From the NCBI GenBank assembly GCA_964016885.1, contig OZ024742.1, positions 217,248,001 through 217,312,000 of the forward strand: a stretch of 64,000 bases of DNA, given 5' to 3'. Below the pieces are notes generated by a model. It had not been told where the DNA came from. It was given only the letters and a program-made list of their open reading frames with translations, and searched no databases. Position 1 is the first letter of the stretch, and every line of letters starts with the position of its first letter. The stretch is from Eledone cirrhosa (lineage: Eukaryota). Shown in pieces: positions 332 to 35,660 of this stretch. The position numbers were made by a program, and so were the translations under genes.

Positions 332-3300
332 ATGTAAGTATGCATGTATACGTACATACATATATGTATACAGACGTACAGTAGCATGCACATATATATA
401 TATATATACATATATATATACATATGCATACAGGTACACATACATATATGCACGTATCAGTTTAGCGGCGCTAACGTCGCTTTGTTCGTTTGTAAACAAA
501 CTGAACAGCCTGAATTTATGCCATACGGTGTTAAGGCAACCACGTCACCTTTTTGTTCAACACTGACACAGGAACGATGTACTAGTTTCAAGCTTGTTAG
601 CTATCATCAGCACCGTTTACCCATCTGCCAGATAGTTGAACGTTCGAAAGTATATACTTTCCTTATGAAAATTAACGGCTGAGCAGCCTAATTTGCATAT
701 TGAGTGAGTTAAATCGGTCAGGCATACCGAAAACGATAAATTGAAACAAAATGAAAACGAAATTTCATTTCTCACTCTTAGTATGGCACTTACTTAAATG
801 TAAGTATGCATGTATACGTACATACATATATGTATACAGACGTACAGTAGCATGCACATATATATATATATATACATATATATATACATATGCATACAGG
901 TACACATACATATATGCACGTATCAGTTTAGCGGCGCTAACGTCGCTTTGTTCGTTTGTAAACAAACTGAACAGCCTGAATTTATGCCATACGGTGTTAA
1001 GGCAACCACGTCACCTTTTTGTTCAACACTGACACAGGAACGATGTACTAGTTTCAAGCTTGTTAGCTATCATCAGCACCGTTTACCCATCTGCCAGATA
1101 GTTGAACGTTCGAAAGTATATACTTTCCTTATGAAAATTAACGGCTGAGCAGCCTAATTTGCATATTGAGTGAGTTAAATCGGTCAGGCATACCGAAAAC
1201 GATAAATTGAAACAAAATGAAAACGAAATTTCATTTCTCACTCTTAGTATGGCACTTACTTAAATGTAAGTATGCATGTATACGTACATACATATATGTA
1301 TACAGACGTACAGTAGCATGCACATATATATATATATATACATATATATATACATATGCATACAGGTACACATACATATATGCACGTATCAGTTTAGCGG
1401 CGCTAACGTCGCTTTGTTCGTTTGTAAACAAACTGAACAGCCTGAATTTATGCCATACGGTGTTAAGGCAACCACGTCACCTTTTTGTTCAACACTGACA
1501 CAGGAACGATGTACTAGTTTCAAGCTTGTTAGCTATCATCAGCACCGTTTACCCATCTGCCAGATAGTTGAACGTTCGAAAGTATATACTTTCCTTATGA
1601 AAATTAACGGCTGAGCAGCCTAATTTGCATATTGAGTGAGTTAAATCGGTCAGGCATACCGAAAACGATAAATTGAAACAAAATGAAAACGAAATTTCAT
1701 TTCTCACTCTTAGTATGGCACTTACTTAAATGTAAGTATGCATGTATACGTACATACATATATGTATACAGACGTACAGTAGCATGCACATATATATATA
1801 TATATACATATATATATACATATGCATACAGGTACACATACATATATGCACGTATCAGTTTAGCGGCGCTAACGTCGCTTTGTTCGTTTGTAAACAAACT
1901 GAACAGCCTGAATTTATGCCATACGGTGTTAAGGCAACCACGTCACCTTTTTGTTCAACACTGACACAGGAACGATGTACTAGTTTCAAGCTTGTTAGCT
2001 ATCATCAGCACCGTTTACCCATCTGCCAGATAGTTGAACGTTCGAAAGTATATACTTTCCTTATGAAAATTAACGGCTGAGCAGCCTAATTTGCATATTG
2101 AGTGAGTTAAATCGGTCAGGCATACCGAAAACGATAAATTGAAACAAAATGAAAACGAAATTTCATTTCTCACTCTTAGTATGGCACTTACTTAAATGTA
2201 AGTATGCATGTATACGTACATACATATATGTATACAGACGTACAGTAGCATGCACATATATATATATATATACATATATATATACATATGCATACAGGTA
2301 CACATACATATATGCACGTATCAGTTTAGCGGCGCTAACGTCGCTTTGTTCGTTTGTAAACAAACTGAACAGCCTGAATTTATGCCATACGGTGTTAAGG
2401 CAACCACGTCACCTTTTTGTTCAACACTGACACAGGAACGATGTACTAGTTTCAAGCTTGTTAGCTATCATCAGCACCGTTTACCCATCTGCCAGATAGT
2501 TGAACGTTCGAAAGTATATACTTTCCTTATGAAAATTAACGGCTGAGCAGCCTAATTTGCATATTGAGTGAGTTAAATCGGTCAGGCATACCGAAAACGA
2601 TAAATTGAAACAAAATGAAAACGAAATTTCATTTCTCACTCTTAGTATGGCACTTACTTAAATGTAAGTATGCATGTATACGTACATACATATATGTATA
2701 CAGACGTACAGTAGCATGCACATATATATATATATATACATATATATATACATATGCATACAGGTACACATACATATATGCACGTATCAGTTTAGCGGCG
2801 CTAACGTCGCTTTGTTCGTTTGTAAACAAACTGAACAGCCTGAATTTATGCCATACGGTGTTAAGGCAACCACGTCACCTTTTTGTTCAACACTGACACA
2901 GGAACGATGTACTAGTTTCAAGCTTGTTAGCTATCATCAGCACCGTTTACCCATCTGCCAGATAGTTGAACGTTCGAAAGTATATACTTTCCTTATGAAA
3001 ATTAACGGCTGAGCAGCCTAATTTGCATATTGAGTGAGTTAAATCGGTCAGGCATACCGAAAACGATAAATTGAAACAAAATGAAAACGAAATTTCATTT
3101 CTCACTCTTAGTATGGCACTTACTTAAATGTAAGTATGCATGTATACGTACATACATATATGTATACAGACGTACAGTAGCATGCACATATATATATATA
3201 TATACATATATATATACATATGCATACAGGTACACATACATATATGCACGTATCAGTTTAGCGGCGCTAACGTCGCTTTGTTCGTTTGTAAACAAACTGA

Positions 3301-6300
3301 ACAGCCTGAATTTATGCCATACGGTGTTAAGGCAACCACGTCACCTTTTTGTTCAACACTGACACAGGAACGATGTACTAGTTTCAAGCTTGTTAGCTAT
3401 CATCAGCACCGTTTACCCATCTGCCAGATAGTTGAACGTTCGAAAGTATATACTTTCCTTATGAAAATTAACGGCTGAGCAGCCTAATTTGCATATTGAG
3501 TGAGTTAAATCGGTCAGGCATACCGAAAACGATAAATTGAAACAAAATGAAAACGAAATTTCATTTCTCACTCTTAGTATGGCACTTACTTAAATGTAAG
3601 TATGCATGTATACGTACATACATATATGTATACAGACGTACAGTAGCATGCACATATATATATATATATACATATATATATACATATGCATACAGGTACA
3701 CATACATATATGCACGTATCAGTTTAGCGGCGCTAACGTCGCTTTGTTCGTTTGTAAACAAACTGAACAGCCTGAATTTATGCCATACGGTGTTAAGGCA
3801 ACCACGTCACCTTTTTGTTCAACACTGACACAGGAACGATGTACTAGTTTCAAGCTTGTTAGCTATCATCAGCACCGTTTACCCATCTGCCAGATAGTTG
3901 AACGTTCGAAAGTATATACTTTCCTTATGAAAATTAACGGCTGAGCAGCCTAATTTGCATATTGAGTGAGTTAAATCGGTCAGGCATACCGAAAACGATA
4001 AATTGAAACAAAATGAAAACGAAATTTCATTTCTCACTCTTAGTATGGCACTTACTTAAATGTAAGTATGCATGTATACGTACATACATATATGTATACA
4101 GACGTACAGTAGCATGCACATATATATATATATATACATATATATATACATATGCATACAGGTACACATACATATATGCACGTATCAGTTTAGCGGCGCT
4201 AACGTCGCTTTGTTCGTTTGTAAACAAACTGAACAGCCTGAATTTATGCCATACGGTGTTAAGGCAACCACGTCACCTTTTTGTTCAACACTGACACAGG
4301 AACGATGTACTAGTTTCAAGCTTGTTAGCTATCATCAGCACCGTTTACCCATCTGCCAGATAGTTGAACGTTCGAAAGTATATACTTTCCTTATGAAAAT
4401 TAACGGCTGAGCAGCCTAATTTGCATATTGAGTGAGTTAAATCGGTCAGGCATACCGAAAACGATAAATTGAAACAAAATGAAAACGAAATTTCATTTCT
4501 CACTCTTAGTATGGCACTTACTTAAATGTAAGTATGCATGTATACGTACATACATATATGTATACAGACGTACAGTAGCATGCACATATATATATATATA
4601 TACATATATATATACATATGCATACAGGTACACATACATATATGCACGTATCAGTTTAGCGGCGCTAACGTCGCTTTGTTCGTTTGTAAACAAACTGAAC
4701 AGCCTGAATTTATGCCATACGGTGTTAAGGCAACCACGTCACCTTTTTGTTCAACACTGACACAGGAACGATGTACTAGTTTCAAGCTTGTTAGCTATCA
4801 TCAGCACCGTTTACCCATCTGCCAGATAGTTGAACGTTCGAAAGTATATACTTTCCTTATGAAAATTAACGGCTGAGCAGCCTAATTTGCATATTGAGTG
4901 AGTTAAATCGGTCAGGCATACCGAAAACGATAAATTGAAACAAAATGAAAACGAAATTTCATTTCTCACTCTTAGTATGGCACTTACTTAAATGTAAGTA
5001 TGCATGTATACGTACATACATATATGTATACAGACGTACAGTAGCATGCACATATATATATATATATACATATATATATACATATGCATACAGGTACACA
5101 TACATATATGCACGTATCAGTTTAGCGGCGCTAACGTCGCTTTGTTCGTTTGTAAACAAACTGAACAGCCTGAATTTATGCCATACGGTGTTAAGGCAAC
5201 CACGTCACCTTTTTGTTCAACACTGACACAGGAACGATGTACTAGTTTCAAGCTTGTTAGCTATCATCAGCACCGTTTACCCATCTGCCAGATAGTTGAA
5301 CGTTCGAAAGTATATACTTTCCTTATGAAAATTAACGGCTGAGCAGCCTAATTTGCATATTGAGTGAGTTAAATCGGTCAGGCATACCGAAAACGATAAA
5401 TTGAAACAAAATGAAAACGAAATTTCATTTCTCACTCTTAGTATGGCACTTACTTAAATGTAAGTATGCATGTATACGTACATACATATATGTATACAGA
5501 CGTACAGTAGCATGCACATATATATATATATATACATATATATATACATATGCATACAGGTACACATACATATATGCACGTATCAGTTTAGCGGCGCTAA
5601 CGTCGCTTTGTTCGTTTGTAAACAAACTGAACAGCCTGAATTTATGCCATACGGTGTTAAGGCAACCACGTCACCTTTTTGTTCAACACTGACACAGGAA
5701 CGATGTACTAGTTTCAAGCTTGTTAGCTATCATCAGCACCGTTTACCCATCTGCCAGATAGTTGAACGTTCGAAAGTATATACTTTCCTTATGAAAATTA
5801 ACGGCTGAGCAGCCTAATTTGCATATTGAGTGAGTTAAATCGGTCAGGCATACCGAAAACGATAAATTGAAACAAAATGAAAACGAAATTTCATTTCTCA
5901 CTCTTAGTATGGCACTTACTTAAATGTAAGTATGCATGTATACGTACATACATATATGTATACAGACGTACAGTAGCATGCACATATATATATATATATA
6001 CATATATATATACATATGCATACAGGTACACATACATATATGCACGTATCAGTTTAGCGGCGCTAACGTCGCTTTGTTCGTTTGTAAACAAACTGAACAG
6101 CCTGAATTTATGCCATACGGTGTTAAGGCAACCACGTCACCTTTTTGTTCAACACTGACACAGGAACGATGTACTAGTTTCAAGCTTGTTAGCTATCATC
6201 AGCACCGTTTACCCATCTGCCAGATAGTTGAACGTTCGAAAGTATATACTTTCCTTATGAAAATTAACGGCTGAGCAGCCTAATTTGCATATTGAGTGAG

Positions 6301-6671
6301 TTAAATCGGTCAGGCATACCGAAAACGATAAATTGAAACAAAATGAAAACGAAATTTCATTTCTCACTCTTAGTATGGCACTTACTTAAATGTAAGTATG
6401 CATGTATACGTACATACATATATGTATACAGACGTACAGTAGCATGCACATATATATATATATATACATATATATATACATATGCATACAGGTACACATA
6501 CATATATGCACGTATCAGTTTAGCGGCGCTAACGTCGCTTTGTTCGTTTGTAAACAAACTGAACAGCCTGAATTTATGCCATACGGTGTTAAGGCAACCA
6601 CGTCACCTTTTTGTTCAACACTGACACAGGAACGATGTACTAGTTTCAAGCTTGTTAGCTATCATCAGCAC
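332..6671 (-). repeat. Left arm of the 466-bp tandem array (~13.6 copies); hammerhead sense is on the minus strand
   Basis: The ORF track and sequence repeat at an exact 466-bp period (751, 1217, 1683 ...). The array starts abruptly after a (TA)n tract at ~332. Confidence 0.98.
573..617 (-). ncRNA. Minimal type I hammerhead ribozyme, family A; representative of 13 minus-strand copies, 573-617 to 6165-6209
   Basis: Exact reverse complement of the 7120-7164 motif. Confidence 0.88.
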
Positions 6672-9600
6672 TAACAAGCTTGAAACTAGTACATCGTTCC
6701 TGTGTCAGTGTTGAACAAAAAGGTGACGTGGTTGCCTTAACACCGTATGGCATAAATTCAGGCTGTTCAGTTTGTTTACAAACGAACAAAGCGACGTTAG
6801 CGCCGCTAAACTGATACGTGCATATATGTATGTGTACCTGTATGCATATGTATATATATATGTATATATATATATATATGTGCATGCTACTGTACGTCTG
6901 TATACATATATGTATGTACGTATACATGCATACTTACATTTAAGTAAGTGCCATACTAAGAGTGAGAAATGAAATTTCGTTTTCATTTTGTTTCAATTTA
7001 TCGTTTTCGGTATGCCTGACCGATTTAACTCACTCAATGTGCAAATTAGGCTGCTCAGCCGTTAATTTTCATAAGGAAAGTATATACTTTCGAACGTTCA
7101 ACTATCTGGCAGATGGGTAAACGGTGCTGATGATAGCTAACAAGCTTGAAACTAGTACATCGTTCCTGTGTCAGTGTTGAACAAAAAGGTGACGTGGTTG
7201 CCTTAACACCGTATGGCATAAATTCAGGCTGTTCAGTTTGTTTACAAACGAACAAAGCGACGTTAGCGCCGCTAAACTGATACGTGCATATATGTATGTG
7301 TACCTGTATGCATATGTATATATATATGTATATATATATATATATGTGCATGCTACTGTACGTCTGTATACATATATGTATGTACGTATACATGCATACT
7401 TACATTTAAGTAAGTGCCATACTAAGAGAGAGAAATGAAATTTCGTTTTCATTTTGTTTCAATTTATCGTTTTCGGTATGCCTGACCGATTTAACTCACT
7501 CAATATGCAAATTAGGCTGCTCAGCCGTTAATTTTCATAAGGAAAGTATATACTTTCGAACGTTCAACTATCTGGCAGATGGGTAAACGGTGCTGATGAT
7601 AGCTAACAAGCTTGAAACTAGTACATCGTTCCTGTGTCAGTGTTGAACAAAAAGGTGACGTGGTTGCCTTAACACCGTATGGCATAAATTCAGGCTGTTC
7701 AGTTTGTTTACAAACGAACAAAGCGACGTTAGCGCCGCTAAACTGATACGTGCATATATGTATGTGTACCTGTATGCATATGTATATATATATGTATATA
7801 TATATATATATGTGCATGCTACTGTACGTCTGTATACATATATGTATGTACGTATACATGCATACTTACATTTAAGTAAGTGCCATACTAAGAGTGAGAA
7901 ATGAAATTTCGTTTTCATTTTGTTTCAATTTATCGTTTTCGGTATGCCTGACCGATTTAACTCACTCAATATGCAAATTAGGCTGCTCAGCCGTTAATTT
8001 TCATAAGGAAAGTATATACTTTCGAACGTTCAACTATCTGGCAGATGGGTAAACGGTGCTGATGATAGCTAACAAGCTTGAAACTAGTACATCGTTCCTG
8101 TGTCAGTGTTGAACAAAAAGGTGACGTGGTTGCCTTAACACCGTATGGCATAAATTCAGGCTGTTCAGTTTGTTTACAAACGAACAAAGCGACGTTAGCG
8201 CCGCTAAACTGATACGTGCATATATGTATGTGTACCTGTATGCATATGTATATATATATGTATATATATATATATATGTGCATGCTACTGTACGTCTGTA
8301 TACATATATGTATGTACGTATACATGCATACTTACATTTAAGTAAGTGCCATACTAAGAGTGAGAAATGAAATTTCGTTTTCATTTTGTTTCAATTTATC
8401 GTTTTCGGTATGCCTGACCGATTTAACTCACTCAATATGCAAATTAGGCTGCTCAGCCGTTAATTTTCATAAGGAAAGTATATACTTTCGAACGTTCAAC
8501 TATCTGGCAGATGGGTAAACGGTGCTGATGATAGCTAACAAGCTTGAAACTAGTACATCGTTCCTGTGTCAGTGTTGAACAAAAAGGTGACGTGGTTGCC
8601 TTAACACCGTATGGCATAAATTCAGGCTGTTCAGTTTGTTTACAAACGAACAAAGCGACGTTAGCGCCGCTAAACTGATACGTGCATATATGTATGTGTA
8701 CCTGTATGCATATGTATATATATATGTATATATATATATATATGTGCATGCTACTGTACGTCTGTATACATATATGTATGTACGTATACATGCATACTTA
8801 CATTTAAGTAAGTGCCATACTAAGAGTGAGAAATGAAATTTCGTTTTCATTTTGTTTCAATTTATCGTTTTCGGTATGCCTGACCGATTTAACTCACTCA
8901 ATATGCAAATTAGGCTGCTCAGCCGTTAATTTTCATAAGGAAAGTATATACTTTCGAACGTTCAACTATCTGGCAGATGGGTAAACGGTGCTGATGATAG
9001 CTAACAAGCTTGAAACTAGTACATCGTTCCTGTGTCAGTGTTGAACAAAAAGGTGACGTGGTTGCCTTAACACCGTATGGCATAAATTCAGGCTGTTCAG
9101 TTTGTTTACAAACGAACAAAGCGACGTTAGCGCCGCTAAACTGATACGTGCATATATGTATGTGTACCTGTATGCATATGTATATATATATGTATATATA
9201 TATATATATGTGCATGCTACTGTACGTCTGTATACATATATGTATGTACGTATACATGCATACTTACATTTAAGTAAGTGCCATACTAAGAGTGAGAAAT
9301 GAAATTTCGTTTTCATTTTGTTTCAATTTATCGTTTTCGGTATGCCTGACCGATTTAACTCACTCAATATGCAAATTAGGCTGCTCAGCCGTTAATTTTC
9401 ATAAGGAAAGTATATACTTTCGAACGTTCAACTATCTGGCAGATGGGTAAACGGTGCTGATGATAGCTAACAAGCTTGAAACTAGTACATCGTTCCTGTG
9501 TCAGTGTTGAACAAAAAGGTGACGTGGTTGCCTTAACACCGTATGGCATAAATTCAGGCTGTTCAGTTTGTTTACAAACGAACAAAGCGACGTTAGCGCC

Positions 9601-12600
9601 GCTAAACTGATACGTGCATATATGTATGTGTACCTGTATGCATATGTATATATATATGTATATATATATATATATGTGCATGCTACTGTACGTCTGTATA
9701 CATATATGTATGTACGTATACATGCATACTTACATTTAAGTAAGTGCCATACTAAGAGTGAGAAATGAAATTTCGTTTTCATTTTGTTTCAATTTATCGT
9801 TTTCGGTATGCCTGACCGATTTAACTCACTCAATATGCAAATTAGGCTGCTCAGCCGTTAATTTTCATAAGGAAAGTATATACTTTCGAACGTTCAACTA
9901 TCTGGCAGATGGGTAAACGGTGCTGATGATAGCTAACAAGCTTGAAACTAGTACATCGTTCCTGTGTCAGTGTTGAACAAAAAGGTGACGTGGTTGCCTT
10001 AACACCGTATGGCATAAATTCAGGCTGTTCAGTTTGTTTACAAACGAACAAAGCGACGTTAGCGCCGCTAAACTGATACGTGCATATATGTATGTGTACC
10101 TGTATGCATATGTATATATATATGTATATATATATATATATGTGCATGCTACTGTACGTCTGTATACATATATGTATGTACGTATACATGCATACTTACA
10201 TTTAAGTAAGTGCCATACTAAGAGTGAGAAATGAAATTTCGTTTTCATTTTGTTTCAATTTATCGTTTTCGGTATGCCTGACCGATTTAACTCACTCAAT
10301 ATGCAAATTAGGCTGCTCAGCCGTTAATTTTCATAAGGAAAGTATATACTTTCGAACGTTCAACTATCTGGCAGATGGGTAAACGGTGCTGATGATAGCT
10401 AACAAGCTTGAAACTAGTACATCGTTCCTGTGTCAGTGTTGAACAAAAAGGTGACGTGGTTGCCTTAACACCGTATGGCATAAATTCAGGCTGTTCAGTT
10501 TGTTTACAAACGAACAAAGCGACGTTAGCGCCGCTAAACTGATACGTGCATATATGTATGTGTACCTGTATGCATATGTATATATATATGTATATATATA
10601 TATATATGTGCATGCTACTGTACGTCTGTATACATATATGTATGTACGTATACATGCATACTTACATTTAAGTAAGTGCCATACTAAGAGTGAGAAATGA
10701 AATTTCGTTTTCATTTTGTTTCAATTTATCGTTTTCGGTATGCCTGACCGATTTAACTCACTCAATATGCAAATTAGGCTGCTCAGCCGTTAATTTTCAT
10801 AAGGAAAGTATATACTTTCGAACGTTCAACTATCTGGCAGATGGGTAAACGGTGCTGATGATAGCTAACAAGCTTGAAACTAGTACATCGTTCCTGTGTC
10901 AGTGTTGAACAAAAAGGTGACGTGGTTGCCTTAACACCGTATGGCATAAATTCAGGCTGTTCAGTTTGTTTACAAACGAACAAAGCGACGTTAGCGCCGC
11001 TAAACTGATACGTGCATATATGTATGTGTACCTGTATGCATATGTATATATATATGTATATATATATATATATGTGCATGCTACTGTACGTCTGTATACA
11101 TATATGTATGTACGTATACATGCATACTTACATTTAAGTAAGTGCCATACTAAGAGTGAGAAATGAAATTTCGTTTTCATTTTGTTTCAATTTATCGTTT
11201 TCGGTATGCCTGACCGATTTAACTCACTCAATATGCAAATTAGGCTGCTCAGCCGTTAATTTTCATAAGGAAAGTATATACTTTCGAACGTTCAACTATC
11301 TGGCAGATGGGTAAACGGTGCTGATGATAGCTAACAAGCTTGAAACTAGTACATCGTTCCTGTGTCAGTGTTGAACAAAAAGGTGACGTGGTTGCCTTAA
11401 CACCGTATGGCATAAATTCAGGCTGTTCAGTTTGTTTACAAACGAACAAAGCGACGTTAGCGCCGCTAAACTGATACGTGCATATATGTATGTGTACCTG
11501 TATGCATATGTATATATATATGTATATATATATATATATGTGCATGCTACTGTACGTCTGTATACATATATGTATGTACGTATACATGCATACTTACATT
11601 TAAGTAAGTGCCATACTAAGAGTGAGAAATGAAATTTCGTTTTCATTTTGTTTCAATTTATCGTTTTCGGTATGCCTGACCGATTTAACTCACTCAATAT
11701 GCAAATTAGGCTGCTCAGCCGTTAATTTTCATAAGGAAAGTATATACTTTCGAACGTTCAACTATCTGGCAGATGGGTAAACGGTGCTGATGATAGCTAA
11801 CAAGCTTGAAACTAGTACATCGTTCCTGTGTCAGTGTTGAACAAAAAGGTGACGTGGTTGCCTTAACACCGTATGGCATAAATTCAGGCTGTTCAGTTTG
11901 TTTACAAACGAACAAAGCGACGTTAGCGCCGCTAAACTGATACGTGCATATATGTATGTGTACCTGTATGCATATGTATATATATATGTATATATATATA
12001 TATATGTGCATGCTACTGTACGTCTGTATACATATATGTATGTACGTATACATGCATACTTACATTTAAGTAAGTGCCATACTAAGAGTGAGAAATGAAA
12101 TTTCGTTTTCATTTTGTTTCAATTTATCGTTTTCGGTATGCCTGACCGATTTAACTCACTCAATATGCAAATTAGGCTGCTCAGCCGTTAATTTTCATAA
12201 GGAAAGTATATACTTTCGAACGTTCAACTATCTGGCAGATGGGTAAACGGTGCTGATGATAGCTAACAAGCTTGAAACTAGTACATCGTTCCTGTGTCAG
12301 TGTTGAACAAAAAGGTGACGTGGTTGCCTTAACACCGTATGGCATAAATTCAGGCTGTTCAGTTTGTTTACAAACGAACAAAGCGACGTTAGCGCCGCTA
12401 AACTGATACGTGCATATATGTATGTGTACCTGTATGCATATGTATATATATATGTATATATATATATATATGTGCATGCTACTGTACGTCTGTATACATA
12501 TATGTATGTACGTATACATGCATACTTACATTTAAGTAAGTGCCATACTAAGAGTGAGAAATGAAATTTCGTTTTCATTTTGTTTCAATTTATCGTTTTC

Positions 12601-13053
12601 GGTATGCCTGACCGATTTAACTCACTCAATATGCAAATTAGGCTGCTCAGCCGTTAATTTTCATAAGGAAAGTATATACTTTCGAACGTTCAACTATCTG
12701 GCAGATGGGTAAACGGTGCTGATGATAGCTAACAAGCTTGAAACTAGTACATCGTTCCTGTGTCAGTGTTGAACAAAAAGGTGACGTGGTTGCCTTAACA
12801 CCGTATGGCATAAATTCAGGCTGTTCAGTTTGTTTACAAACGAACAAAGCGACGTTAGCGCCGCTAAACTGATACGTGCATATATGTATGTGTACCTGTA
12901 TGCATATGTATATATATATGTATATATATATATATATGTGCATGCTACTGTACGTCTGTATACATATATGTATGTACGTATACATGCATACTTACATTTA
13001 AGTAAGTGCCATACTAAGAGTGAGAAATGAAATTTCGTTTTCATTTTGTTTCA

Positions 13054-13059
<6 letters not shown>
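6671..13059 (+). repeat. Right, inverted arm of the 466-bp tandem array (~13.7 copies); hammerhead sense is on the plus strand
   Basis: Reverse complement of the left arm (mirror coordinates sum to 13329), with a 12-nt spacer at 6659-6670. Ends in (TA)n at ~13059. Confidence 0.98.
7120..7164 (+). ncRNA. Minimal type I hammerhead ribozyme, family A; representative of 13 plus-strand copies every 466 bp, last at 12712-12756
   Basis: AACGGUG-CUGAUGA-U-AGCU-aaca-AGCU-U-GAAA-CUAG-UA^CAUCGUU. 7-bp stem I, intact core boxes, 4-bp stem II, palindromic ACUAGU stem III, GUA cleavage triplet after 7157. Position 10.1-11.1 is U.U rather than G-C. Confidence 0.88.
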
Positions 13060-13084
<25 letters not shown>

Positions 13085-13096
<12 letters not shown>

Positions 13097-14017
13097 AATG
13101 AAGTAATTCTGTCGGAAATGTCCAGGAAAAAAAGAGTGCTCTATGTAGGTAACAGAGCTTAATAGTTATGTAATAAACAACATAAGGCAATTATTCCATT
13201 TACCAGTGGTTTCTTAAAAGCAAAAAAATTTGCTTTCAATCATCAGAATGAAAAAATCCTGGTGTATTTATTGATATTGGATTCTAAAAACAAAAATGCA
13301 GTCTATATGAAAGTGAGGCTGGAGAAGGAAGAAGGAAAGGAGAAATAAAATAAAAACACATCCAAACACACACACACACAATTATATACATACACACACA
13401 CATATATATATATATATACATACACACACACATATACACATATGTGTATATATATACATACACATACATATACACATACATACATACATGCATAAATATC
13501 AACATATCCATACATATATACAACCACACATATATATACACATATATATATATAGAGAGAAATGTAAATATACATATATATATATATATATATGCATACA
13601 CATACACAGCTATACACACATACATATACATACATACATACACACAATCATACGTATATACACACGTACATACATACACATACATACACACATATATACA
13701 TGCATACATATGCATACACAAAATTAGAAAAATATACACACACCTCTACATATTCACACACGCAAATAAATATAAGAAAAAATATAAAAGACAAAAAAGA
13801 AAAGGACTATTATAAAGTTGACACCGATACAGGCAACAAATAAATGAAAAAACACACGTGGTAATCAATACACACAAATGCACGTACACATACATACGTA
13901 AAAATAAATACATACACACTCTCACACATAAATATACAAATACATAAACACATACATACGCAACCACAAATACATACACACACACACACACATATACATA
14001 TATGCACACACATATAC

Positions 14018-14066
<49 letters not shown>

Positions 14067-14232
14067 CATATATATATATACACACACATACATACATAGC
14101 CATACAATTATACACATACAAATACGTACATATCACAAACACGCACAACCAAATACAAACACACACATATATATATATATGTGTGTAAAACTCATTCTTA
14201 GATAATTCATATGAACCTTATTTAACTCTAAA

Positions 14233-14234
<2 letters not shown>
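13085..14234 (-). mobile_element. Left arm of a diverged inverted repeat (hammerhead-bearing, PLE pLTR/retrozyme-like)
   Basis: ~13169-14234 is the reverse complement of 17091-18097, with substitutions and microsatellite slippage. Confidence 0.75.
13194..13253 (-). ncRNA. Type I hammerhead ribozyme, family B
   Basis: UUUCAUU-CUGAUGA-UUGAAAGC..GCUUUUAA-GAAA-CCACUGG-UA^AAUGGAA on the minus strand. Confidence 0.85.
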
Positions 14235-14275
<41 letters not shown>

Positions 14276-14548
14276 CATACACATATATACCTACACACAC
14301 ACATATATACCTACACACACACATATACAACTCAATATATATATATATTCAACTATCTATCTAAGGCGGGTAAAATTCCCGAGATCCATAGACGAGTTCT
14401 CTCCAGCGGTCTCTGTCCCTCATTATCGCTGCCATGTCCTACATGGAGACACTAGAAGAGGAAGACCAAGGTTAACGTATGTTGATGCCCTAAGGACAGA
14501 CACTGGTCTGTTGGAGACGCAGGATATATATATATATATATATATATA

Positions 14549-15462
14549 TGAGAAAGAACATAAATATTATAAAATAAATATTTTATATATAAAAAAAATT
14601 TTGGAATACGACAAATAATAAATAAAAATATATATATATTTAGAAAAGGGTATAAATGCCCATAGCAGACCTAGAGCCCTCAACAAGTTCATGGAGCAAA
14701 AGATCAATGAAAATAATCATCCGAGAACAAATCCAGGATGCAGTTGCAGGAAGCCGGATGAATGCCCATTGCAGGGCAAATGTAACACCAAATCTGTTGT
14801 TTATGAGGCTAAAATAACACCTTTAATCAACAACCAGCCAGCCAGGAGTGAGCGATATGTCGGCATGACCCAGGACAGGTTTAAAACCAGGTTTTACTCA
14901 CATGTCGCTTCTTTTAAGCACTCCGATAAACGAACAACAACGGCCCTTGCAAGCAAGGTGTGGGAATTCAAGGATAAAAACATCCCGTACTCTATCGATT
15001 GGTCTATTTTAGACCATTCGAGGGAGTACCAAAGGGGCACAAAGAATTGTTCTTTGTGTACCACAGAAAAATATAGGATTTTGCTAAATTTGAAAGCCAC
15101 TTCTGCTTGCCTGAACTCAAAGACCGAGATCTTCAGATGTTGTCCTCATCTGAAATCACATCTGATCTGTAACTGGATTGACATTCCTATGATAACTCAA
15201 CCGCCTTGAACTCCTTCTCTGCTCTTTACTTTTACTACGGTTTTTTTACCTGCTGAATCCACGTTCTGTACTCTTGTATTCTCTTTCTCCCTTATCTCCC
15301 CTTATATTTAAACCTTTTCCCCCCTATTTTTTTGCCTTACGCTTCACATACCAAACATTTTTTTATTTTTAGATATTAAATTTTATATAATGGTTTTGTG
15401 TGTTTTTATATAATAGCCTCAGAAAAGGCTTGAGCTCTGCCGTAGGGGCAGGCTTCTTCCTA

Positions 15463-15530
<68 letters not shown>

Positions 15531-15850
15531 CGTTTTTGTATGTGTGTTTGCATTTCTGTGGTTCCCCAACCACAGAAATTGTTTGTGTGTGTGTATGTAT
15601 ATATATTTATGTGTGCGTGTGTGTGTGTGTGTGTGTATGTATAAGGGTGTATGTATGTGCATCATTATATATAGTGATTTGATAATTCTTTTCATTGATC
15701 TTTTACTCCATGAACTTGTTGAGTGCTCTAGGTCTGCTATGGGCATTTATACCCTTTTCTAAATATATATATATTTTTATTTATTATTTGTCGTATTCCA
15801 AATTTCTTTTTATATATAAAATATTTATTTTATAATATTTGTTCTTTCTC
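14549..15850 (+). mobile_element. 5'-truncated Penelope-like retroelement with inverted pseudo-LTR
   Basis: ~14549-14717 is the reverse complement of ~15685-15850. It encloses a GIY-YIG coding fragment and is flanked by (TA)n on both sides. Confidence 0.8.
14691..15209 (+). pseudogene. C-terminal GIY-YIG endonuclease domain of a Penelope-like element (possibly Naiad clade)
   Basis: CSCRKPDECPLQGKC..SVVYEA..RYVGMT..FKTRFYSH..CSLCTTEK..LNSKTE..CPH: VVY/YVG strands, catalytic R, H, E, N and Cys-rich flanks. The ATG comes from the inverted pLTR; no RT is present. Confidence 0.8.
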
Positions 15851-15991
15851 ATATATATATATATATTGAGTTATATATGTATATGTATGTGTGTGTGTGT
15901 GTACGTATGCATACGTATGTGTATGTATATATGTGTGTGGAGGTATATATGTGTATGTTAGTAAGTATGTATGTGTATGTATGTGTATGCG

Positions 15992-16034
<43 letters not shown>

Positions 16035-16036
<2 letters not shown>

Positions 16037-17090
16037 TATAGTCCTCCAAGCCATAACAGAGGAGTTTAAGACTGGCTGTCCATGGGAACTTCTCTATGCT
16101 GACGATCTGGTTCTTATAGCAGAATCAGTAGAGAAGCTAGAGAAGCTAGAGAATAAATTCTGGCTATGGAAACAGCAGTTGGAAGCAAGAGGACTGAGAG
16201 TGAATCTAGCTAAGACAAAAGTGTTGATGAGTAGAAAAGAGGACAAAACCTTGATTTCGTCAGGGAAATGGCCATGTTTGATATGCAGAACTGGCATAAA
16301 TTCTATAAAATGCACATAATGCAGATCCTGGGTACACAAGAGATGTAGCGGGATAGCAGGCAAACTAACAGGTAGGGAGAAATATGTATGCAGTAGATGT
16401 ACAGGGAAATTAGACAGTAGAAGTCGCATTGATAGACACATTTTTCAAATGCAGGAGGGCGCTATAGAAGTGGTGGATAGCTTCTGGTACCTAGGAGATC
16501 AGATTAGCATGGGAGGAGGGTGTTCCAAGGCCATAGTATCTAGAGGACGGGTTGGAAGAAGTTTAGGGAGCTGCTTCATCTGTTGACGAAGAAGGGTTTC
16601 TCCCTGCGTACGAAAGGCCAGTTGTATGATGCCTGTGTGAGGAGTGCGATGTTGCATGGTAGTGAGACATGGGCAGCAATTGCAGAGGATATGCGACGGC
16701 TGGAGAGAAATGAGGCAAGCATGCTCCGTTGGATGTGCAGTGTAAATGTGCGTGAACGACCCAGCATAAATGTGTTGAGAGAGAAACTGTGTCTGAGAGG
16801 GATAGAATGTAGTGTACGGGAGAGGAGACTGATGTGGTATGGACATGTGATGCGCATGGAGGATGACCGATGGGTGAAGAAGTGCCAGGAAATGCCAGTT
16901 GAAGGAAGACGTGGTAGAGGTAGACAACGAAAAACATGGGCGGAGGTGGTGAGAACAGACCTCAGATCATTGAAGCTCACGGTGGCGATGACGAAGGACC
17001 GTGACAAGTGGAGAGATGCTGTGCTGAATAAGACCCGTCCCACCCTTGCAAGCAGGGAAAAGCGGACGTAAAATGATGATGATGATGATG
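16035..17090 (+). mobile_element. 5'-truncated RTE-clade LINE
   Basis: [14 protein letters not shown] motif, Cys-rich insert, RRLMWYGHVMR..GRPRKTW-like C-terminus, stops and frameshifts, (GAT)n tail. Confidence 0.9.
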
Positions 17091-17138
17091 ATTTTAGAGT
17101 TAAATAAGGTTCATATGAATTATCTAAGAATGAGTTTT

Positions 17139-17182
<44 letters not shown>

Positions 17183-17248
17183 TTGTATTTGGTTGTGCGT
17201 GTTTGTGATATGTACGTAGTTGTATGTGTATAATTGTATGGCTATGTA

Positions 17249-17319
<71 letters not shown>

Positions 17320-17831
17320 ATATGTGTGTGTATATATGTATATATGTGTGTGTGTGTGTGTGTATGTATGTGTTTATGTATTTGTATATGTATATTTATG
17401 TGTGAGAGTGAGTATGTATTTATTTTTACGTATGTATGTGTACGTGCATTCGTGTGTTTTTTCATTTATTTGTTGCCTGTATCGCTGTCAACTTTATAAT
17501 AGTCTTTATTTTCTTTTTTGTCTTTTATATTTTTTCTTATATTTATTTGCGTGTGTGAATATGTAGAGGTGTGTGTATATACGTATGATTGTGTGTATGT
17601 ATGTATGTATATGTATGTGTGTATAGCTGTGTATGTGTATGCATATATATATATATATATATATATTTATATTTCTATATATATATATGTGTGTATATAT
17701 ATGTGTGTGGTTGTATATATGTATGTGTATGCATGGATATGTTGATATTTATGCGTGTATGTATGTATATGTATGTGTATGTATATATATACACATATAT
17801 ATATGTATATGTGTGTGTGTATGTATGTGTG

Positions 17832-17872
<41 letters not shown>

Positions 17873-18092
17873 ATATAATTGTGTGTGTGTGTGTTTGCAT
17901 GTGTGTTTTTATTTTATTTTTCCTTTCCTTCTTCCTTCTCCAGCCTCTTTCATATAGATTGCATTTTTGTTTTTAGAATCCAATATCAATAAATACACCA
18001 GGATTTTTTTCATTCTGATGATTGAAAGCCACACTTTTTTGCTTTTAAGAAACCACTGGTAAATGGAATAATTGCCTTATGTTGTTTATTAC

Positions 18093-18097
<5 letters not shown>
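17091..18097 (+). mobile_element. Right arm of the diverged inverted repeat (hammerhead-bearing)
   Basis: Reverse complement of ~13169-14234; ends in (TA)n. Confidence 0.75.
18008..18068 (+). ncRNA. Type I hammerhead ribozyme, family B
   Basis: Stem I 18008-18014/18062-18068, CTGATGA 18015-18021, 8-bp stem II, GAAA 18049-18052, stem III ACC-act-GGT, cleavage after A18061. Confidence 0.85.
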
Positions 18098-23940: not shown

Positions 23941-23988
<48 letters not shown>

Positions 23989-23990
<2 letters not shown>

Positions 23991-24224
23991 AGTAAGTATG
24001 TTTTGAAACAGTGAGCAGGTTTGAAATTAGAAAATAGAATAGCTTTCACCGTATTTTTGACTAAAGGAATTTTAGCCTGATAATGGGGTTTAGAACCCTC
24101 AGATAAATGGAAAAAGATGAGTATTAACGTACATGGGAGTCGAACCCACATCTTTTTCCATTTATCTGAGGGTTCTAAACCCCATTATCAGGCTAAAATT
24201 CCTTTAGTCAAAAATACGGTGAAA
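23989..24224. repeat. Fold-back insertion in (TA)n: 76-bp arms at 24044-24119 and 24149-24224
   Basis: Perfect reverse-complement arms; the spacer contains a B-box-like GGTTCGACTCCC on the minus strand. Confidence 0.85.
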
Positions 24225-27855: not shown

Positions 27856-27999
27856 CTTTGAGCATGTGGCTATTATCCAAACAATTAGAATCTCCAAAGA
27901 TTGCAACACGACCAGATCCAGGTTTGCCAACTGTTTGATGTAAGCCTAAAACTGGAACATGTTCTATAGTTCGAGAACGGCTTTGAAGAACTTCATAGC
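27856..27999 (-). CDS. MBTPS1: Site-1 protease exon (GYEVLQ...GRVAIFGDSNCLDNSHMLK)
   Basis: 144 bp, AG/GT boundaries, phase 1-1; matches the vertebrate S1P motif GRIVLYGDSNCLDDSH. Confidence 0.92.
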
Positions 28000-28548: not shown

Positions 28549-28592
<44 letters not shown>

Positions 28593-28597
<5 letters not shown>

Positions 28598-30318
28598 GAG
28601 AGAATTGATCTAGATGAAATGCAGTTCGGGTTTGTGTCAGGCAAAAGCACCACAGACGCTCTTTTCATAGTACGACAACTACAGAAGTACCTAGCTAAAG
28701 GTAAACCCCTCTACTTAGCTTTTGTCGACCTGGAGAAAGCCTTCGACAGAGTCCCCCGCTCCATTATCTGGTGGGCTCTTAGAAAACTAGGCGTTGACGA
28801 ATGGCTTGTGAGGGCTATACAAGCCATGTATAAAGAAACAGTCAGCAAGGTTAGAATTAACAACAAATATAGTGAAGAGTTTAGCGTAAAAGTTGGCGTC
28901 CATCAGGGCTCTGTTCTCAGCCCCCTACTATTTATTATTGCCCTTCAGGCTATAACAGAGGAGTTCAAGACAGGCTGCCCATGGGAACTCCTATACGCAG
29001 ACGACCTGACACTCATAGCGGAATCAATGGCCGAGCTAGAGAAGAAATTCCAAACATGGAAGCACGGCCTAGAGTCAAAAGGACTTAAAATTAACCTGGC
29101 AAAGAGCAAAGTTCTAGTTTGTAGGAAAGAAAACAAGGCGGCGGTCCCTTCTGGGAAATGGTCGTGCTCGGTATGTAGGAAAGGCGTAGGTAGAAACTCC
29201 ATCTTATGTCCTAAATGCAAAGTATGGGTGCATAAAAGATGTAGTGGGATCACAGGTAAGCTAACTAAGAACATAGACTTTACATGTGGCCGGTGTTCTG
29301 GTGCAATAAGTAGCAGCAAGTGCCCACAAAATACTAGCTCTTTCAATTGCGCAGAGGGTTCTATAGAAATAGTGGACAGCTTCCGTTACCTGGGCGATAA
29401 AATCAGCAGTGGGGGAGGGTGCTCTGAAAGTACTGTAGCTAGAGTCAGAACTGGTTGGAAAAAGTTCAGAGAGCTTATACCACTATTAGCTGCTAAAGGG
29501 TTCTCCCTAAAAATGAAAGGCAGGTTGTACGATGCCTGCATACGAACAGCAATGTTGCATGGTAGGGAGACCTGGGCATTGTGTGCAGAGGATATACGCA
29601 GACTAGAGAGGAACGAAGCTTGCATGCTCCGCTGGATGTGTAACAGTAATATACGTGAACGGCAAAGCATAAACGAACTAAGGAAAAAATTAGAGATAAG
29701 AGGGATCAGATGTTGTTTACTCGAGAGAAGGCTGCGTTGGTATGGACACGTGATGCGCATGAAAGTCGATAGCTGTATTACAAAGTGCAGGGCAATAAAG
29801 ATAGACGGTAGCCACGGAATAGGCAGACCTAGAAAAACATGGGATGAGCTGATAAACTCCGACCTCACACACTTACACCTCTCCAAGACAATGTCACTGG
29901 ACCGTGACCTTTGGCGGTACTCAGTAACAGAGAAGACCCGCCTTGCCAGTAGGCATCTCTAACAAACTACACCCCGTCCCGCCACCACCCCCACCCCATC
30001 CACACCACCCCGTTCTATGTAAAGTTATGTTGGTGCCGCGCCATCCAGGCCGAAACAAATGAGATCGTGTAGGTGTCACGACAAAAAAACACACAGTCCA
30101 CGCTGTAATGTGGCCGTGTAGGCAACACGGTAAAAACCTCCCAGACCCACACTGTAAATGTGGTTGGTGTTAGGAAGGGCATCCAACTGTAGAAAACCTG
30201 CCAGACAGTCCTATGCGAGCAAGACAATCACTCTTGCCTCAAGTGGGACTACCCCCGTCCAAACCCATGCAAGCGTGGAACACGGACGTTAAACGTTGAT
30301 GATGATGATGATGATGAT
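28593..30318 (+). mobile_element. 5'-truncated RTE LINE with an open RT 3' half
   Basis: ORF 28487-29962 (QFGFV..DLEKAFDRV..YADD..YLG..RLRWYGHV), 3' UTR and (GAT)n tail. Very similar to 20770-21290. Confidence 0.92.
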
Positions 30319-30633
30319 ACAACCTTTATTGAGTCTTTTCTGGATTTTGGTCTGGATTTATTATTACTACTATATATATATATACAACCCTTATCGAGTC
30401 CTCCCTGGATTTTGGTCTGGATTTATTATTACTACTATATATATATATATGACAGGCTTTCACATAGTTTCCACCAAAATCCAAATTTCACTCACAAGAC
30501 ACTTGCCTAAGATACCACCATATAGTGGGACTGAACCCAAAACTATGTGCCTGCAAGATGAATTCAACTACACAACCATGCCCTTATATAAATATATATA
30601 ATATTCTTAATTATGGCTATGTGGTGAATCTGG

Positions 30634-30882
30634 ATACTCAAGACTCATCATTTAGCCATAATAAAATCATTAAACTCATTAAATACTCATTCTCGCATCT
30701 GTCAACATCACATGAATATCTATATCTGCTTCTTCTTTGCCCACTTATTCCTGGGAAGGCCGTAGGAATAAGTGGGCAAAGAAGAAGCAGATATAGATAT
30801 TCATGTGATGTTGACAGATGCGAGAATGAGTATTTAATGAGTTTAATGATTTTATTATGGCTAAATGATGAGTCTTGAGTAT
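30634..30882. repeat. Perfect palindrome with 119-bp arms and an 11-nt spacer
   Basis: 30634-30752 is the reverse complement of 30764-30882. Confidence 0.92.
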
Positions 30883-31771: not shown

Positions 31772-32203
31772 TAACGGAGGAAATGTGGTAAGAAACCAGG
31801 TGGACCATAACGCACCAAAGTACTCAATACTTAGGGTAGTAGAGTGGGTAATAGGAACGAGTAGGACCCCGACGGCTGAGCTCAAACCGTTTCGACGGCT
31901 AATTCTGGACTAAATGAAAATTTTTATCCTGGTATTTGAATAGCCGAGCTTCTCAAGGGGTAATTCCATATATGGTAAAAGTGATTGTCACAAGGATTGG
32001 TCAAAAGTTTGTTGTTGAGACATACAACAAACTTTCTCAACAACAAACTTTTGACCAATCCTTGTGACAATCACTTTTACCATATATGGAATTACCCCTT
32101 AGAAGCTCGGCTATTCAAATACCAGGATAAAAATGTTCATTTAGTCCAGAATTAGCCGTCGAAACGACTTGAGCTCAGCCGTCGGGGTCCTACTCGTTCC
32201 TAT
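31772..32203. mobile_element. Fold-back pLTR-like insertion in (TA)n, arms 31851-32020 and 32035-32203
   Basis: Near-perfect inverted repeat; the left arm extends further; (TA)n on both sides. Confidence 0.85.
31866..31961 (-). ncRNA. Type I hammerhead ribozyme, family D, U3-A8 variant core
   Basis: ACCCC-UUGAGAA-G..CGGCUA...UAGCCG.C-GAAA-CGGU-uUGAGCUCA-GCCG-UC^GGGGU. The mirrored plus-strand copy has lost a G in the core. Confidence 0.68.
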
Positions 32204-32227
32204 ATATATATATATATATATATATAT

Positions 32228-32423
32228 TATGAAAAGATCCAGGACAACAATGGCTGAGCTCCGGCCGTTTTGACAGCTAGTTGTTTGGATGATCTAGCTG
32301 TTGAAACAGCCAGAGCTCAGCCGTCGGGGTCCTGGATCTTTTCATATTAACCACTCTGCTACTCCAAGTATCAAGTACTCTGGTGCGTTATGGTCCACCT
32401 GGTATCTTACCACACCCTCTTTG

Positions 32424-32425
<2 letters not shown>
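32228..32425. mobile_element. Second, diverged fold-back copy of the same family (arms 32228-32280 and 32294-32346)
   Basis: Contains GAAAC..GAGCTCAGCCGTCGGGG. Its tail is a diverged reverse complement of 31772-31850; flanked by (TA)n. Confidence 0.75.
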
Positions 32426-32474
<49 letters not shown>

Positions 32475-32875
32475 ACTTGTAACTCCTACCCACTTACAAC
32501 ACCATACCTCCAGCCACCCTGACTTGTATCGGCAGCTGCTAGCTTCTTAAAGTAAACCAGTTAGATAAAATTTATACTCACGCCACCAAAGTTAATTTAT
32601 TACCTTTCAATCATATCTGGTCACTCTGCCCTGAGTTCCTTCCCTTCTACTTCTCTCTCTTCTCATCTTCTTCCTCAAACCCCCTCCTCCCCTATCCACA
32701 ATACATATATTAAGCAGGTTTTGACCAGCAGTAATCCCTCCACTTTCTAAACTCCACTCACAAATAAAACTTTTCTCATTGATCATTTAGATTATGATCT
32801 CCCCTCTCACTTACAAACATGTTATACTTATAGTAATTCAACTTTTATTCAGTTCCTTATTCCTTTCTTTATATA

Positions 32876-33793: not shown

Positions 33794-34521
33794 ACATGGC
33801 TTAGTGGTTAGAGCATTGGCCTTGCAATCGAAAGGTTGTGAGTTCAATTCTCAGACCGGGTGATGTGTTGTTTCCTTAAGCAAGACACTTTATTTCACAT
33901 TGCTCCAGTTTACTCAGCTGTAGAAATGAGGTGATAGGGACTGGGGTCCTTATCATTCCACTGCAAAAAGTGGACGTGCAGGTGCCACGCAAAAAAGCAC
34001 CCAGCACTCACTGTAAATGAGGTTGGTGTTAGGAAGGGCATCCAGCTGTAGAAATCAAGCCAGAATCAGTTCCCGTTCCACCCTTGCAAGCAGGGAAAAT
34101 CGGACATAAAATGAAATGAATGAAATGATATAATGGAGGTACATGGTTTAGTGGTTAGAGCATTGGGCTTGCAATCGAAAGGTTGTGAGTTCAATTCTCA
34201 GACCGGGTGATGTGTTGTTTCCTTGAGCAAGACACTTTATTTCACATTGCTCCAGTTTACTCAGCTGTAGAAATGAGATGATAGGACTGGGGTCCCTATC
34301 ATTCCACTGCAAAGTGGTCGTGGAGGTGCCACTGCAAGAAAAAAAAAGCACCCAGCCCACACTGTAAAGTGGACGTGTAGGCGCCATGGAAAAAAGCACC
34401 CAGCACTCACTGAAATTGAGGTTGGTGTTAGGAAGAGCATTCAGCTGTAGAAATCAAGCCAGAATCAGTTCCCGTCCCACCCTTGCAAGCAAGGAAAAGC
34501 GGACATAAAATGATGATGATG
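33794..34521 (+). mobile_element. Two tandem tRNA-headed SINEs with RTE-derived 3' tails
   Basis: A-box TGGCTTAGTGG, B-box GTTCAATTC; 3' end matches the LINE end at 17035-17090. Another copy lies at 43939-44282. Confidence 0.8.
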
Positions 34522-35089
34522 AGATATATATATATATATATATACCATTTTTTTATTATTATCATTGATTATTATTGCTTATTTTCGATTATTGCCATGC
34601 TTTCCAGCATAGTTACGTCCCTTTACGATCCGAGTTCAAATACCGCCGAGGTTGACTTTGCCTTTCATCCTTACGGGGGTCGATAAAATAAAGTACCAGT
34701 AATGCACTGGGTAATTGCTGGCCTTGTGCCTAAAGTAGAAACAATTATTATTAGCTTACTATTTTCCCCCAACCACTTCTGTTACATTTCGATTCTGAAT
34801 TTCTCTATGTGGTTTGTACCCCAGATCAGATAGCAGTAAGTAATAATTATTGCAAAAATGTGACGACCTTGCCTTGAACTATAGCAATTTTTCTCTTTCT
34901 GATGAAGTGCAATAATTTATTATGTAATGCATACAATTGAGCATGGGATTTTGCAGTCAGTGCATGTAGATGGTTATTTTATAGAAACATGTTAAATGAA
35001 CTCTCAATAAATTTCTCCTTCTGACCAATTCTACCTGCCAAGCTATTCCTGTTTTTCCTGGTACCATATATATATATATATATATATAT

Positions 35090-35660
35090 CTTTAGGTTTG
35101 TTGGTTCACCACTGGATAGAATTGGTCATTCTGTATGGTCAATCTTGGTGTAATATTGTGGAGAGTATTCAACGTAGTGCAGTTCACCCGTCTTCGTTTG
35201 TGTAGTTGGTGGTGAGAATACGGAGTTAATTATAAATAAAATAACAGGAGGCTGGACTGGTGTAAATCCTTGAAAGGTTTATTATACTATGATCATTTCA
35301 ATGACCGTGTTCCATATGAATCCGGTGATATCATCAGGTATTGGAATATAACAAAGGAATATGTAAAAAACCATGGTTCCGAAAAATCAGAGACAGAGAC
35401 AAAGAGGACGACTGACCAACTAGCTGCTTTCACCTCGGCTAGAGGGCGACTGGCCGAAGTGAAAGCAGCTAGTTGGTCAGTCGTCCTCTTTGTCTCTGTC
35501 TCTGATTTTTCGGAACCATGGTTTTTTACACATTCCTTTGTTATATTCCAATACCTGATGATATCACCGGATTCATATGGAACCCGGTCATTGAAATGAT
35601 CATAGTATAATAAACCTTTCAAGGATTTACACCAGTCCAACCTCCTGTTATTTTATTTAT
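35090..35660. mobile_element. Fold-back pLTR-like insertion in (TA)n, arms 35232-35442 and 35450-35660
   Basis: 211-bp near-perfect arms, 7-nt spacer, left arm extended, (TA)n on both sides. Confidence 0.88.
35551..35608 (+). ncRNA. Type I hammerhead ribozyme, family C (mirror copy at 35284-35341 on the minus strand)
   Basis: AUAC-CUGAUGA-UAUCACCGG..CCGGUCAUU-GAAA-UGAUCA-UA^GUAU. Palindromic stem III AUGAUCAU and a short 4-bp stem I. Confidence 0.75.

Follow-up and report, generated by a model that had tools for sequence, protein, structure and literature searches.

Introduction

According to PMC8557442, Penelope-like elements (PLEs) of the Hydra clade insert as an inverted 5'-truncated copy with a tail at one end, hammerheads near the 3' ends and (TA)n as the target. 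Here, we analyse insertions of this architecture in a 64,000-nucleotide stretch of the Eledone cirrhosa genome (contig OZ024742.1 of GCA_964016885.1), below called the window. It corresponds to C3:217248001-217312000 in an assembly of 3.0 Gb and 1,796 contigs.

Three other described systems are close. A purified PLE, Poseidon from Anolis, cuts and extends both strands of its target in vitro; synthesis starts at two neighbouring sites that delimit the tail, and the protein is predicted to act as a dimer (PMC11167929). Rotifer Penelope elements (PMC3846280) form head-to-head inverted repeats with a one-arm tail and mobilise unrelated sequence in trans; there the inverted repeats are explained by self-priming and the passengers are flanked by the PLE's own pseudo-long terminal repeats (pLTRs). 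For the non-coding retrozymes that lack long terminal repeats (LTRs), PMC7229834 proposes circular templates, tandem cDNA and PLEs as the likely mobiliser, and the preprint 10.64898/2026.07.22.740005 argues for a PLE origin from co-occurrence and pLTR homology.

The architecture of the insertions studied here is thus already known, as it is described for PLEs in PMC8557442. What we add is the pairing of a long with a short 3' end in each fold-back, non-coding passengers that carry the PLE insertion signature, and one array in which a dimer marked by A>G changes is repeated. Together the data indicate that the six fold-backs of the window were probably made by Hydra-type PLE proteins through nicking of both strands of a TA repeat and synthesis of two cDNAs from two fixed RNA sites, with passengers mobilised in trans and arrays formed via circular RNA.

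Six insertions in the window

The original prediction, made from the letters of the window, described a recurrent architecture at seven places. Inverted arms, located by self-comparison of the window, are present at every one of them, (TA)n lies outside both ends of all the insertions, and the arms are unequal. However, the places at 13085-18097 and 14549-15850 are one insertion, so that seven places become six, Table 1.

Hammerheads were located with a custom type I descriptor (helices I-III) and shuffled controls, since an Rfam scan of the whole window gave only sub-threshold, microRNA-like matches among the best 150 of 294 matches listed. Complete type I hammerhead motifs are found in four insertions. 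They belong to four different sequence families and are all directed away from the centre, as had been predicted: 27 cores in the array (14 on -, 13 on +), 13246(-)/18015(+), 35337(-)/35555(+) and 31956(-). The insertion at 23989-24224 has no hammerhead and the one at 32228-32425 no intact core.

Coding PLE families (C, E and E-like) account for three of the six insertions, each of them a truncated end. The other three are non-coding passengers with the same insertion signature: the family A array, a 1.95-kb hammerhead unit (family F) and a tRNA-headed unit (family D). The idea of several non-autonomous ribozyme RNAs is therefore partly wrong, since it fits neither the three coding ends nor D, which has no ribozyme.

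The array is the youngest insertion in the window, as originally suggested, because 24 of its 26 full monomers are identical (the other two differ by one base each) while arm identity is 85-98% for most of the other arms. The 76-bp arms of family D are 100% identical.

Table 1. Coordinates of the six insertions and of the features within them.
Feature	Position	Strand	Description
TA runs at array	321-333; 13057..13085		at left end; common to array and next insertion
Family A left arm	332..6671	-	13.6 monomers of 466 bp, minimal type I hammerhead motif in each; short outer end ~250 nt past predicted cut
Family A right arm	6671..13059	+	13.7 monomers; long outer end 310 nt past predicted cut, 59-nt tail
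Family C inverted arm	13086..14721	-	3' untranslated region (UTR), long end (tail 13090-13165), hammerhead at 13246; interrupted by an unrelated piece, 14351-14523
Family C sense arm	14722..18096	+	endonuclease end of the open reading frame (ORF), microsatellite-rich 3' UTR including 15675-15850 and its TA runs, hammerhead 18015, short end
GIY-YIG-like C-terminal domain	14715..15188	+	CxCX5C linker, CxxC, CxH
Secondary insertion in family C	16040..17090	+	decayed 3' part of a long interspersed nuclear element (LINE), presumably RTE; YADD motif and (GAT)n tail readable
Family D fold-back	23989..24224	long arm -, short arm +	260-bp tandem unit, tRNA-like head, no hammerhead found
Family E fold-back	31774-32203	long arm 31774-32030 (-), short arm 32035-32203 (+)	3' end of second coding PLE; 77-nt tail
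E-like mini fold-back	32228..32425	short arm -, long arm +	older, diverged; truncated inside ribozyme, no intact core
Family F fold-back	35090..35661	long arm (-), short arm (+)	hammerheads 35337 (long arm) and 35555 (short arm); 3' end of 1.95-kb non-coding unit; tail 141-144 nt

The same signature across the genome

To sample the genome without selection we used four 200-kb blocks at round coordinates (800 kb). In these, 81 canonical-core hammerhead motifs were found (4 in the shuffle), together with 14 of a variant in which U replaces C at position 3 and A replaces G at position 8 (U3-A8; none in the shuffle). This corresponds to about one hammerhead motif per 8-9 kb (95 in 800 kb), which would extrapolate, roughly, to 350,000 in the genome. 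By eye, a dozen or more hammerhead families can be distinguished, several with U3-A8 cores and many with U-U beside the core. The U3-A8 pair would be compensatory. The nearest published support for such compensation is the partial rescue by C3G/G8C in PMC11167929.

The orientation of the hammerheads is not random. Within 5 kb, same-family motifs on opposite strands form 20 outward pairs and 1 inward pair (2 of these 21 are cross pairs of neighbouring duplicates), and all 19 nearest pairs point outward (p=4e-6). The family A hammerhead was also searched as a 44-mer, which has 10,001 exact occurrences in the genome and none for the reversed 44-mer used as control; the first 100 sites listed, read by eye, include 12 outward neighbours at <=1.3 kb and one inward at 2.3 kb.

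TA flanks are also far above background. A (TA)n run lies within 10 nt of one boundary in 85 of 136 inverted-repeat clusters, a set that includes a few repeat rows of one element, compared with 12.6% of random intervals. The other TA run is found 40-210 nt further out in 56 of the 136 (random 2.8%), and only 8 have TA directly at both boundaries; the gap to the outer run is the tail. The blocks also contain 36 pieces of PLE ORFs. The genome sample thus agrees with what had been proposed for the window, i.e. PLE machinery, (TA)n targeting and routine head-to-head palindromes with outward ribozymes, and a PLE origin of the fold-back insertions is very probable.

Families C and E are coding PLEs

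The predicted GIY-YIG-like PLE domain is confirmed as an open frame of 183 codons at 14640-15188. The frame was matched at 150 of 150 scored places (of 59,637 first-look candidates), and the family C domain has 95-98.6% DNA identity to all 29 other copies checked. ORFs of 711-715 aa are present in five of the six loci examined for long family C frames. The full-length frames carry RWK, DKT, YRDDG, CxCX5C, YVG, CxxC and CxH, with RWK at 41 and DKT at 118 in a 714-aa frame (L133). Pfam gave no family for any of four PLE proteins, and the domain names rest on the motifs and on PMC8557442.

Judged by its motifs, family C would be a Hydra-clade PLE. It shares with the elements in PMC8557442 the RWK and DKT motifs, the CxCX5C linker, the GIY-YIG-like domain with CxxC and CxH, the hammerhead near the 3' end, the (TA)n target, the inverted copy and the tail. 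The elements here differ in being longer than 3 kb (<3 kb there), in having tails of ~45-144 nt compared with 30-40, in forming many young families at high density and in that some have U3-A8 cores. In family C, a 2.1-kb ORF is followed by ~2.2-2.4 kb of microsatellite-rich UTR (L128, L133), so it departs from 'generally short (<3 kb)', which is a tendency rather than a strict criterion. The predicted ribozyme at 18015(+) is near the 3' end and sense to the ORF.

When the segments of the window are mapped onto the 29 other copies, they follow one another on one strand: ORF end, 15200-15460, 15675-15850, 17091 onward, hammerhead. Because the segments are collinear there, 13086-18096 is a single fold-back joined at 14721/14722 that later received two insertions. 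It follows that 14549-15850 is not an insertion of its own and that its TA 'flanks' are not target DNA, since in other copies the segment 15675-15850, together with the TA runs beside it, forms part of the PLE 3' UTR.

Family E runs upstream, at other places, into a different endonuclease and reverse transcriptase (RT) frame, 47% (RT) and 35% (endonuclease) identical to family C. The CxCX5C linker, the C-terminal GIY-YIG-like domain, CxxC and CxH were located in copies without the N-terminus. Canonical descriptors missed its ribozyme, which was recovered from aligned copies and with a U3-A8 descriptor; the predicted ribozyme lies near the 3' end, sense to the ORF. In the window, the motif at 31956(-) is on the long arm, and the short arm has a 1-nt deletion in the core.

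Many mini fold-backs of family E have start points that cluster within ~15 nt inside ribozyme helix II, on the upstream side of the predicted cut. A truncated E insertion with its flanks is found at six places (L075-L080; C20:3.99-4.89 Mb and C27:13.10 Mb) at ~99-100% identity, a recurrence that indicates segmental duplication. Beside it there are an LTR-retrotransposon-like pol frame and a LINE (L126, L127).

Non-coding passengers

The PLE signature is not limited to coding families. Family F extends elsewhere into a tandem unit of 1.95 kb, in which no remnant of a PLE ORF was found. The family D head is recognised as tRNA by Rfam with 30-41 bits (gathering 29) at 7 places of two loci (L142 and L157), and ARAGORN matches it at a relaxed threshold. 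No hammerhead was found in D, neither by the relaxed descriptor nor by Rfam. The tRNA-like head is shared with tRNA-derived short interspersed nuclear elements (SINEs), but the LINE-type 3' tail and the dispersed monomers of SINEs are not seen in D; instead, D has long and short 3' ends in (TA)n and occurs as tandem and fold-back copies. Ten of 30 D loci (L144, L145, L147, L150, L153, L159, L160, L165, L166, L170) fold back at nearly one place, on the 3' side of the tRNA-like T arm, which suggests a fixed reverse-transcription stop or an RNA end.

Family A is a tandem repeat, non-coding and low in GC, whose monomers all contain a type I hammerhead motif, as in non-LTR retrozymes (PMC7229834; 10.64898/2026.07.22.740005). 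Its monomers of 466-474 bp are above the 170-400 nt of PMC7229834 and inside the 51-972 bp of the preprint. A forms inverted arrays, targets TA and has a two-site tail, features that we did not find described for retrozymes in these two sources, and here the link to PLEs comes from the insertion signature. A remnant of a PLE ORF was not detected in A at E<=1, and neither was a pLTR homologue among 101 endonuclease matches and 53 upstream flanks, a search that does not exhaust the genome. A third PLE family found beside A arrays was rejected as a partner, as it has its own 3' end and A lies downstream in only 2 of 25 copies.

PLEs that share sequence with the window insertions, which the original prediction expected, exist for C and E. 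For the array, the 1.95-kb unit and the tRNA-headed unit none was found in the DNA compared, which counts against a mobilisation in trans of A, D and F.

An array marked by A>G changes

The clearest indication of how arrays arise comes from a family A array on contig C2 (69.558-69.562 Mb; C2:69558000-69562500, L136), where two monomers, X and Y, alternate through four turns. The order is partial Y, X, Y, X, Y, X, Y, X, partial Y. Compared with the common 474-bp monomer, X has 14 differences and Y has 6, together at 17 positions, and all 20 are A>G on the ribozyme strand. The only additional change is one G>A in one monomer. At 10 of the 17 positions G occurs in none of 115-154 other monomer sequences, and four (167, 169, 329, 356) are common variants. 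Of 1,245 candidates 40 were scored, and among these a 100% match to the X stretch was confined to the four C2 places. A>G accounts for 10 of 110 singleton changes in family A. Over their overlap, the two incomplete monomers at the ends have four A>G marks in common and none of X's three there.

The array reads most simply as adenosine-to-inosine (A-to-I) editing of a circular dimer, which would then have passed through about four rounds of reverse transcription. Several points weigh against this. Only one locus has a clear A>G array, no like case was seen in 20 further stretches, and there is no general A>G excess in 341 matches of six references, where the 4 that were flagged all come from the C2 array. 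A weak second case is one monomer (L311) with 5 of 6 changes A>G. The absence of a 5' G next to the edited-looking sites (0 of 20) does not reach significance (p=0.08). An edited dimer may also have been amplified as DNA once it had inserted.

More generally, the arrays could stem from a short PLE-type insertion that later expanded as DNA, through slippage or unequal exchange, or from the copying of a long linear tandem transcript; neither route requires a rolling circle. Local tandem amplification is favoured by the preprint 10.64898/2026.07.22.740005, and the C6, C8 and L314 arrays are heterogeneous in microsatellite length or have higher-order patterns. However, the marks on the partial end monomers of C2 follow directly from a circular dimer, and array ends retain the exact start sites of the family. 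With a linear template, the 13-14 ribozymes in one arm of the window array would also all have had to remain uncleaved, though minimal PLE hammerheads cut poorly (PMC4209133). We regard these alternatives as a real but unlikely source of the arrays, and rolling-circle copying as modestly favoured.

Nothing in the window array tells rolling-circle copying apart from a long tandem transcript or from later DNA amplification, so a rolling-circle origin can be proposed for it only by analogy with C2. In a C4 array, four substitutions are common to all four full monomers. Other A arrays (L298 and L139-L140) show alternating or higher-order monomer patterns with no A>G bias.

Long and short ends

Each fold-back end was classified as a long or a short 3' end, the difference between the two being the tail; both adjoin TA. 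Tails are 59 (A), 77 (E) and 141-144 (F) nt, and in D the short end spreads over a broad zone ~35-65 nt upstream of the long end. Among 101 adjacent head-to-head pairs of families A, D, E and F, 59 are long+short, 4 long+long and none short+short, while 38 have an unclassified end (in 12 of these it is a D long end where the alignment extended 9 nt beyond). By family, long+short pairs make up 31/46 (E), 8/11 (F), 7/23 (D) and 13/21 (A). An inverted 5'-truncated copy with a tail at one end is therefore seen in 59 of the 63 fully classified pairs; for C it is seen by mapping of the window copy. In the unselected 800 kb, 10 of 11 pairs are long+short and one is unclassified, with no long+long and no short+short.

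The two arms also differ in how far they reach in the 5' direction. In the 59 long+short pairs the long arm extends further in 22, the short arm in 22, and both are equal in 15, so often neither arm contains the other. Of the pairs with a spacer, the arm without a tail extends further in 22 of 44, sometimes by 400-1,700 nt, and by ~950 nt in the family C element of the window. Both arms of a locus share private variants, of which family E has 7 over 3.1 kb and family F 2 over 2.0 kb, compared with 0.013 and 0 per kb across loci. Solo short ends without a partner arm occur in a C6 array of 19 hammerheads and in many F copies. At the head-to-head junctions the alignments mostly overlap by 1-5 nt.

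The long+short pairs, the reach of either arm and the private variants, together with the two-strand, two-site priming reported in PMC11167929, lead us to consider twin priming at two start sites the likely origin of the fold-backs. Like the Anolis protein, the elements here have two 3' start sites that bound the tail and an AT-rich target, and the template was apparently uncut at the hammerhead there just as the arms here pass through the predicted cut site. The difference is that in PMC11167929 no difference in start site was seen between the strands, and its main text gives no inverted-insertion model, while here there is one site per arm. Twin priming has a precedent outside PLEs. In L1, two primings from one target give an inversion, but the pieces do not overlap and are not palindromes.

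The alternative is that the second arm is a hairpin copy of the first, self-primed and made by the same PLE proteins, with later central deletions that randomise the spacer. This is how PMC3846280 reads the rotifer palindromes, and it would account for the private variants common to both arms, for the pairs of equal reach and for the nearly equal arms of the window array. But the pairs in which the tail-less arm reaches further need large one-sided deletions, solo short ends are not readily explained, and in vitro the RT starts at each of the two tail boundaries (PMC11167929). On balance we find a hairpin origin rather improbable.

Some considerations also temper the case for twin priming. A perfect palindrome can, once inserted, lose more from one side of its centre than from the other, which would scatter the spacer, and a spacer on either arm is therefore compatible with hairpin copying. 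Gene conversion could also be the source of the private variants. Outside the 800 kb, the E and D queries included the long end and the F query stopped at the short end, so the short+short counts and spacer sides obtained there are biased by which ends the queries let appear.

The array palindrome could also be an assembly or library artefact. The arms of the 12.7-kb palindrome are 99.9% identical and near-equal in length, and the 800-kb sample does contain an 18-kb palindrome (C4:100051995-100070288, 99.6%) of a ~12-bp repeat that begins at an assembly gap and is possibly an artefact. The outer ends, however, lie exactly at the short and long start sites of the family, as in 12 other A fold-backs, and the junction sits within a hammerhead with the arms offset by 13 nt, an asymmetric centre. 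No contig from four sequencing runs bridged the junction, which is neutral either way. An artefact is thus very unlikely, though the monomer count may still be off.

That a single TA-targeting PLE moves every one of these families as a non-autonomous ribozyme RNA, as the original prediction had it, fits the architecture common to them but is extremely improbable: C and E are coding PLEs as divergent as given above, tails differ by family, D has no hammerhead, and the 101 endonuclease matches in the DNA compared form 22 groups at 70% linkage, so that with so many PLE families a single machinery is untenable for the genome, even if it could still hold for A, D and F.

Other repeats in the window

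An additional fold-back at 30634-30882 has 97% identical arms and a TA-rich run ~35 nt past its left boundary, with no second copy in the DNA compared. At 30317-30449 there are two 65-bp copies, each ending in (TA)n, that by eye resemble the 3' tip of a third PLE family (L321, L323). An old inverted repeat at 62897-63148 (76% arms) is without TA flanks.

Discussion

In the mechanism we propose, a Hydra-type PLE protein would nick both strands of a TA repeat, and two cDNAs would start at two fixed RNA sites, one per strand and probably both on one RNA. Growing towards each other, the two cDNAs would end up linked head to head via a few matching bases. Since cDNAs from two sites are joined in this way, the hammerheads near the 3' ends would point outward and the family-specific tail would be on one arm only. 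The non-coding passengers A, D and F may borrow the PLE protein in trans. Tandem arrays would probably be the product of a reverse transcriptase that makes several circuits of a circular ribozyme RNA, a step suggested chiefly by the C2 array.

A bolder version is that paired Hydra-type PLE proteins, making one cDNA per TA-repeat strand at two fixed sites, roll round circles to produce multi-kb palindromic arrays in one step, fix A-to-I edits in the germ line and carry a tRNA-headed, ribozyme-free, SINE-like passenger. We put this forward tentatively, as somewhat less likely than not.

In a literature search of incomplete coverage that excluded supplements, we found no published account of paired start sites or twin priming in PLEs, nor of the PLE signature in non-coding passengers or of a tRNA-headed PLE passenger. 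With the same incomplete coverage, none was found of an edit-marked rolling-circle array, of edited retroelement copies in genomes making this point, or of hammerheads with PLEs in octopus or a U3-A8 core making these points. The supplements of PMC8557442 and of the preprint may list the families described here.

The route by which PLEs come to insert as tandem and inverted copies is called unresolved in PMC8557442, and PMC7229834 and the preprint 10.64898/2026.07.22.740005 offer no more than a hypothesis on which element moves animal retrozymes; in this genome both questions become countable. The long+short pairing gives a concrete model of insertion, and the four-fold A>G dimer looks like a natural record of the copying of an RNA circle and of RNA editing entering the genome. 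If transcribed, the many fold-backs would be a large source of double-stranded RNA. With intact-looking frames of 711-715 aa and very young passengers, both questions may be tested with one purified protein.

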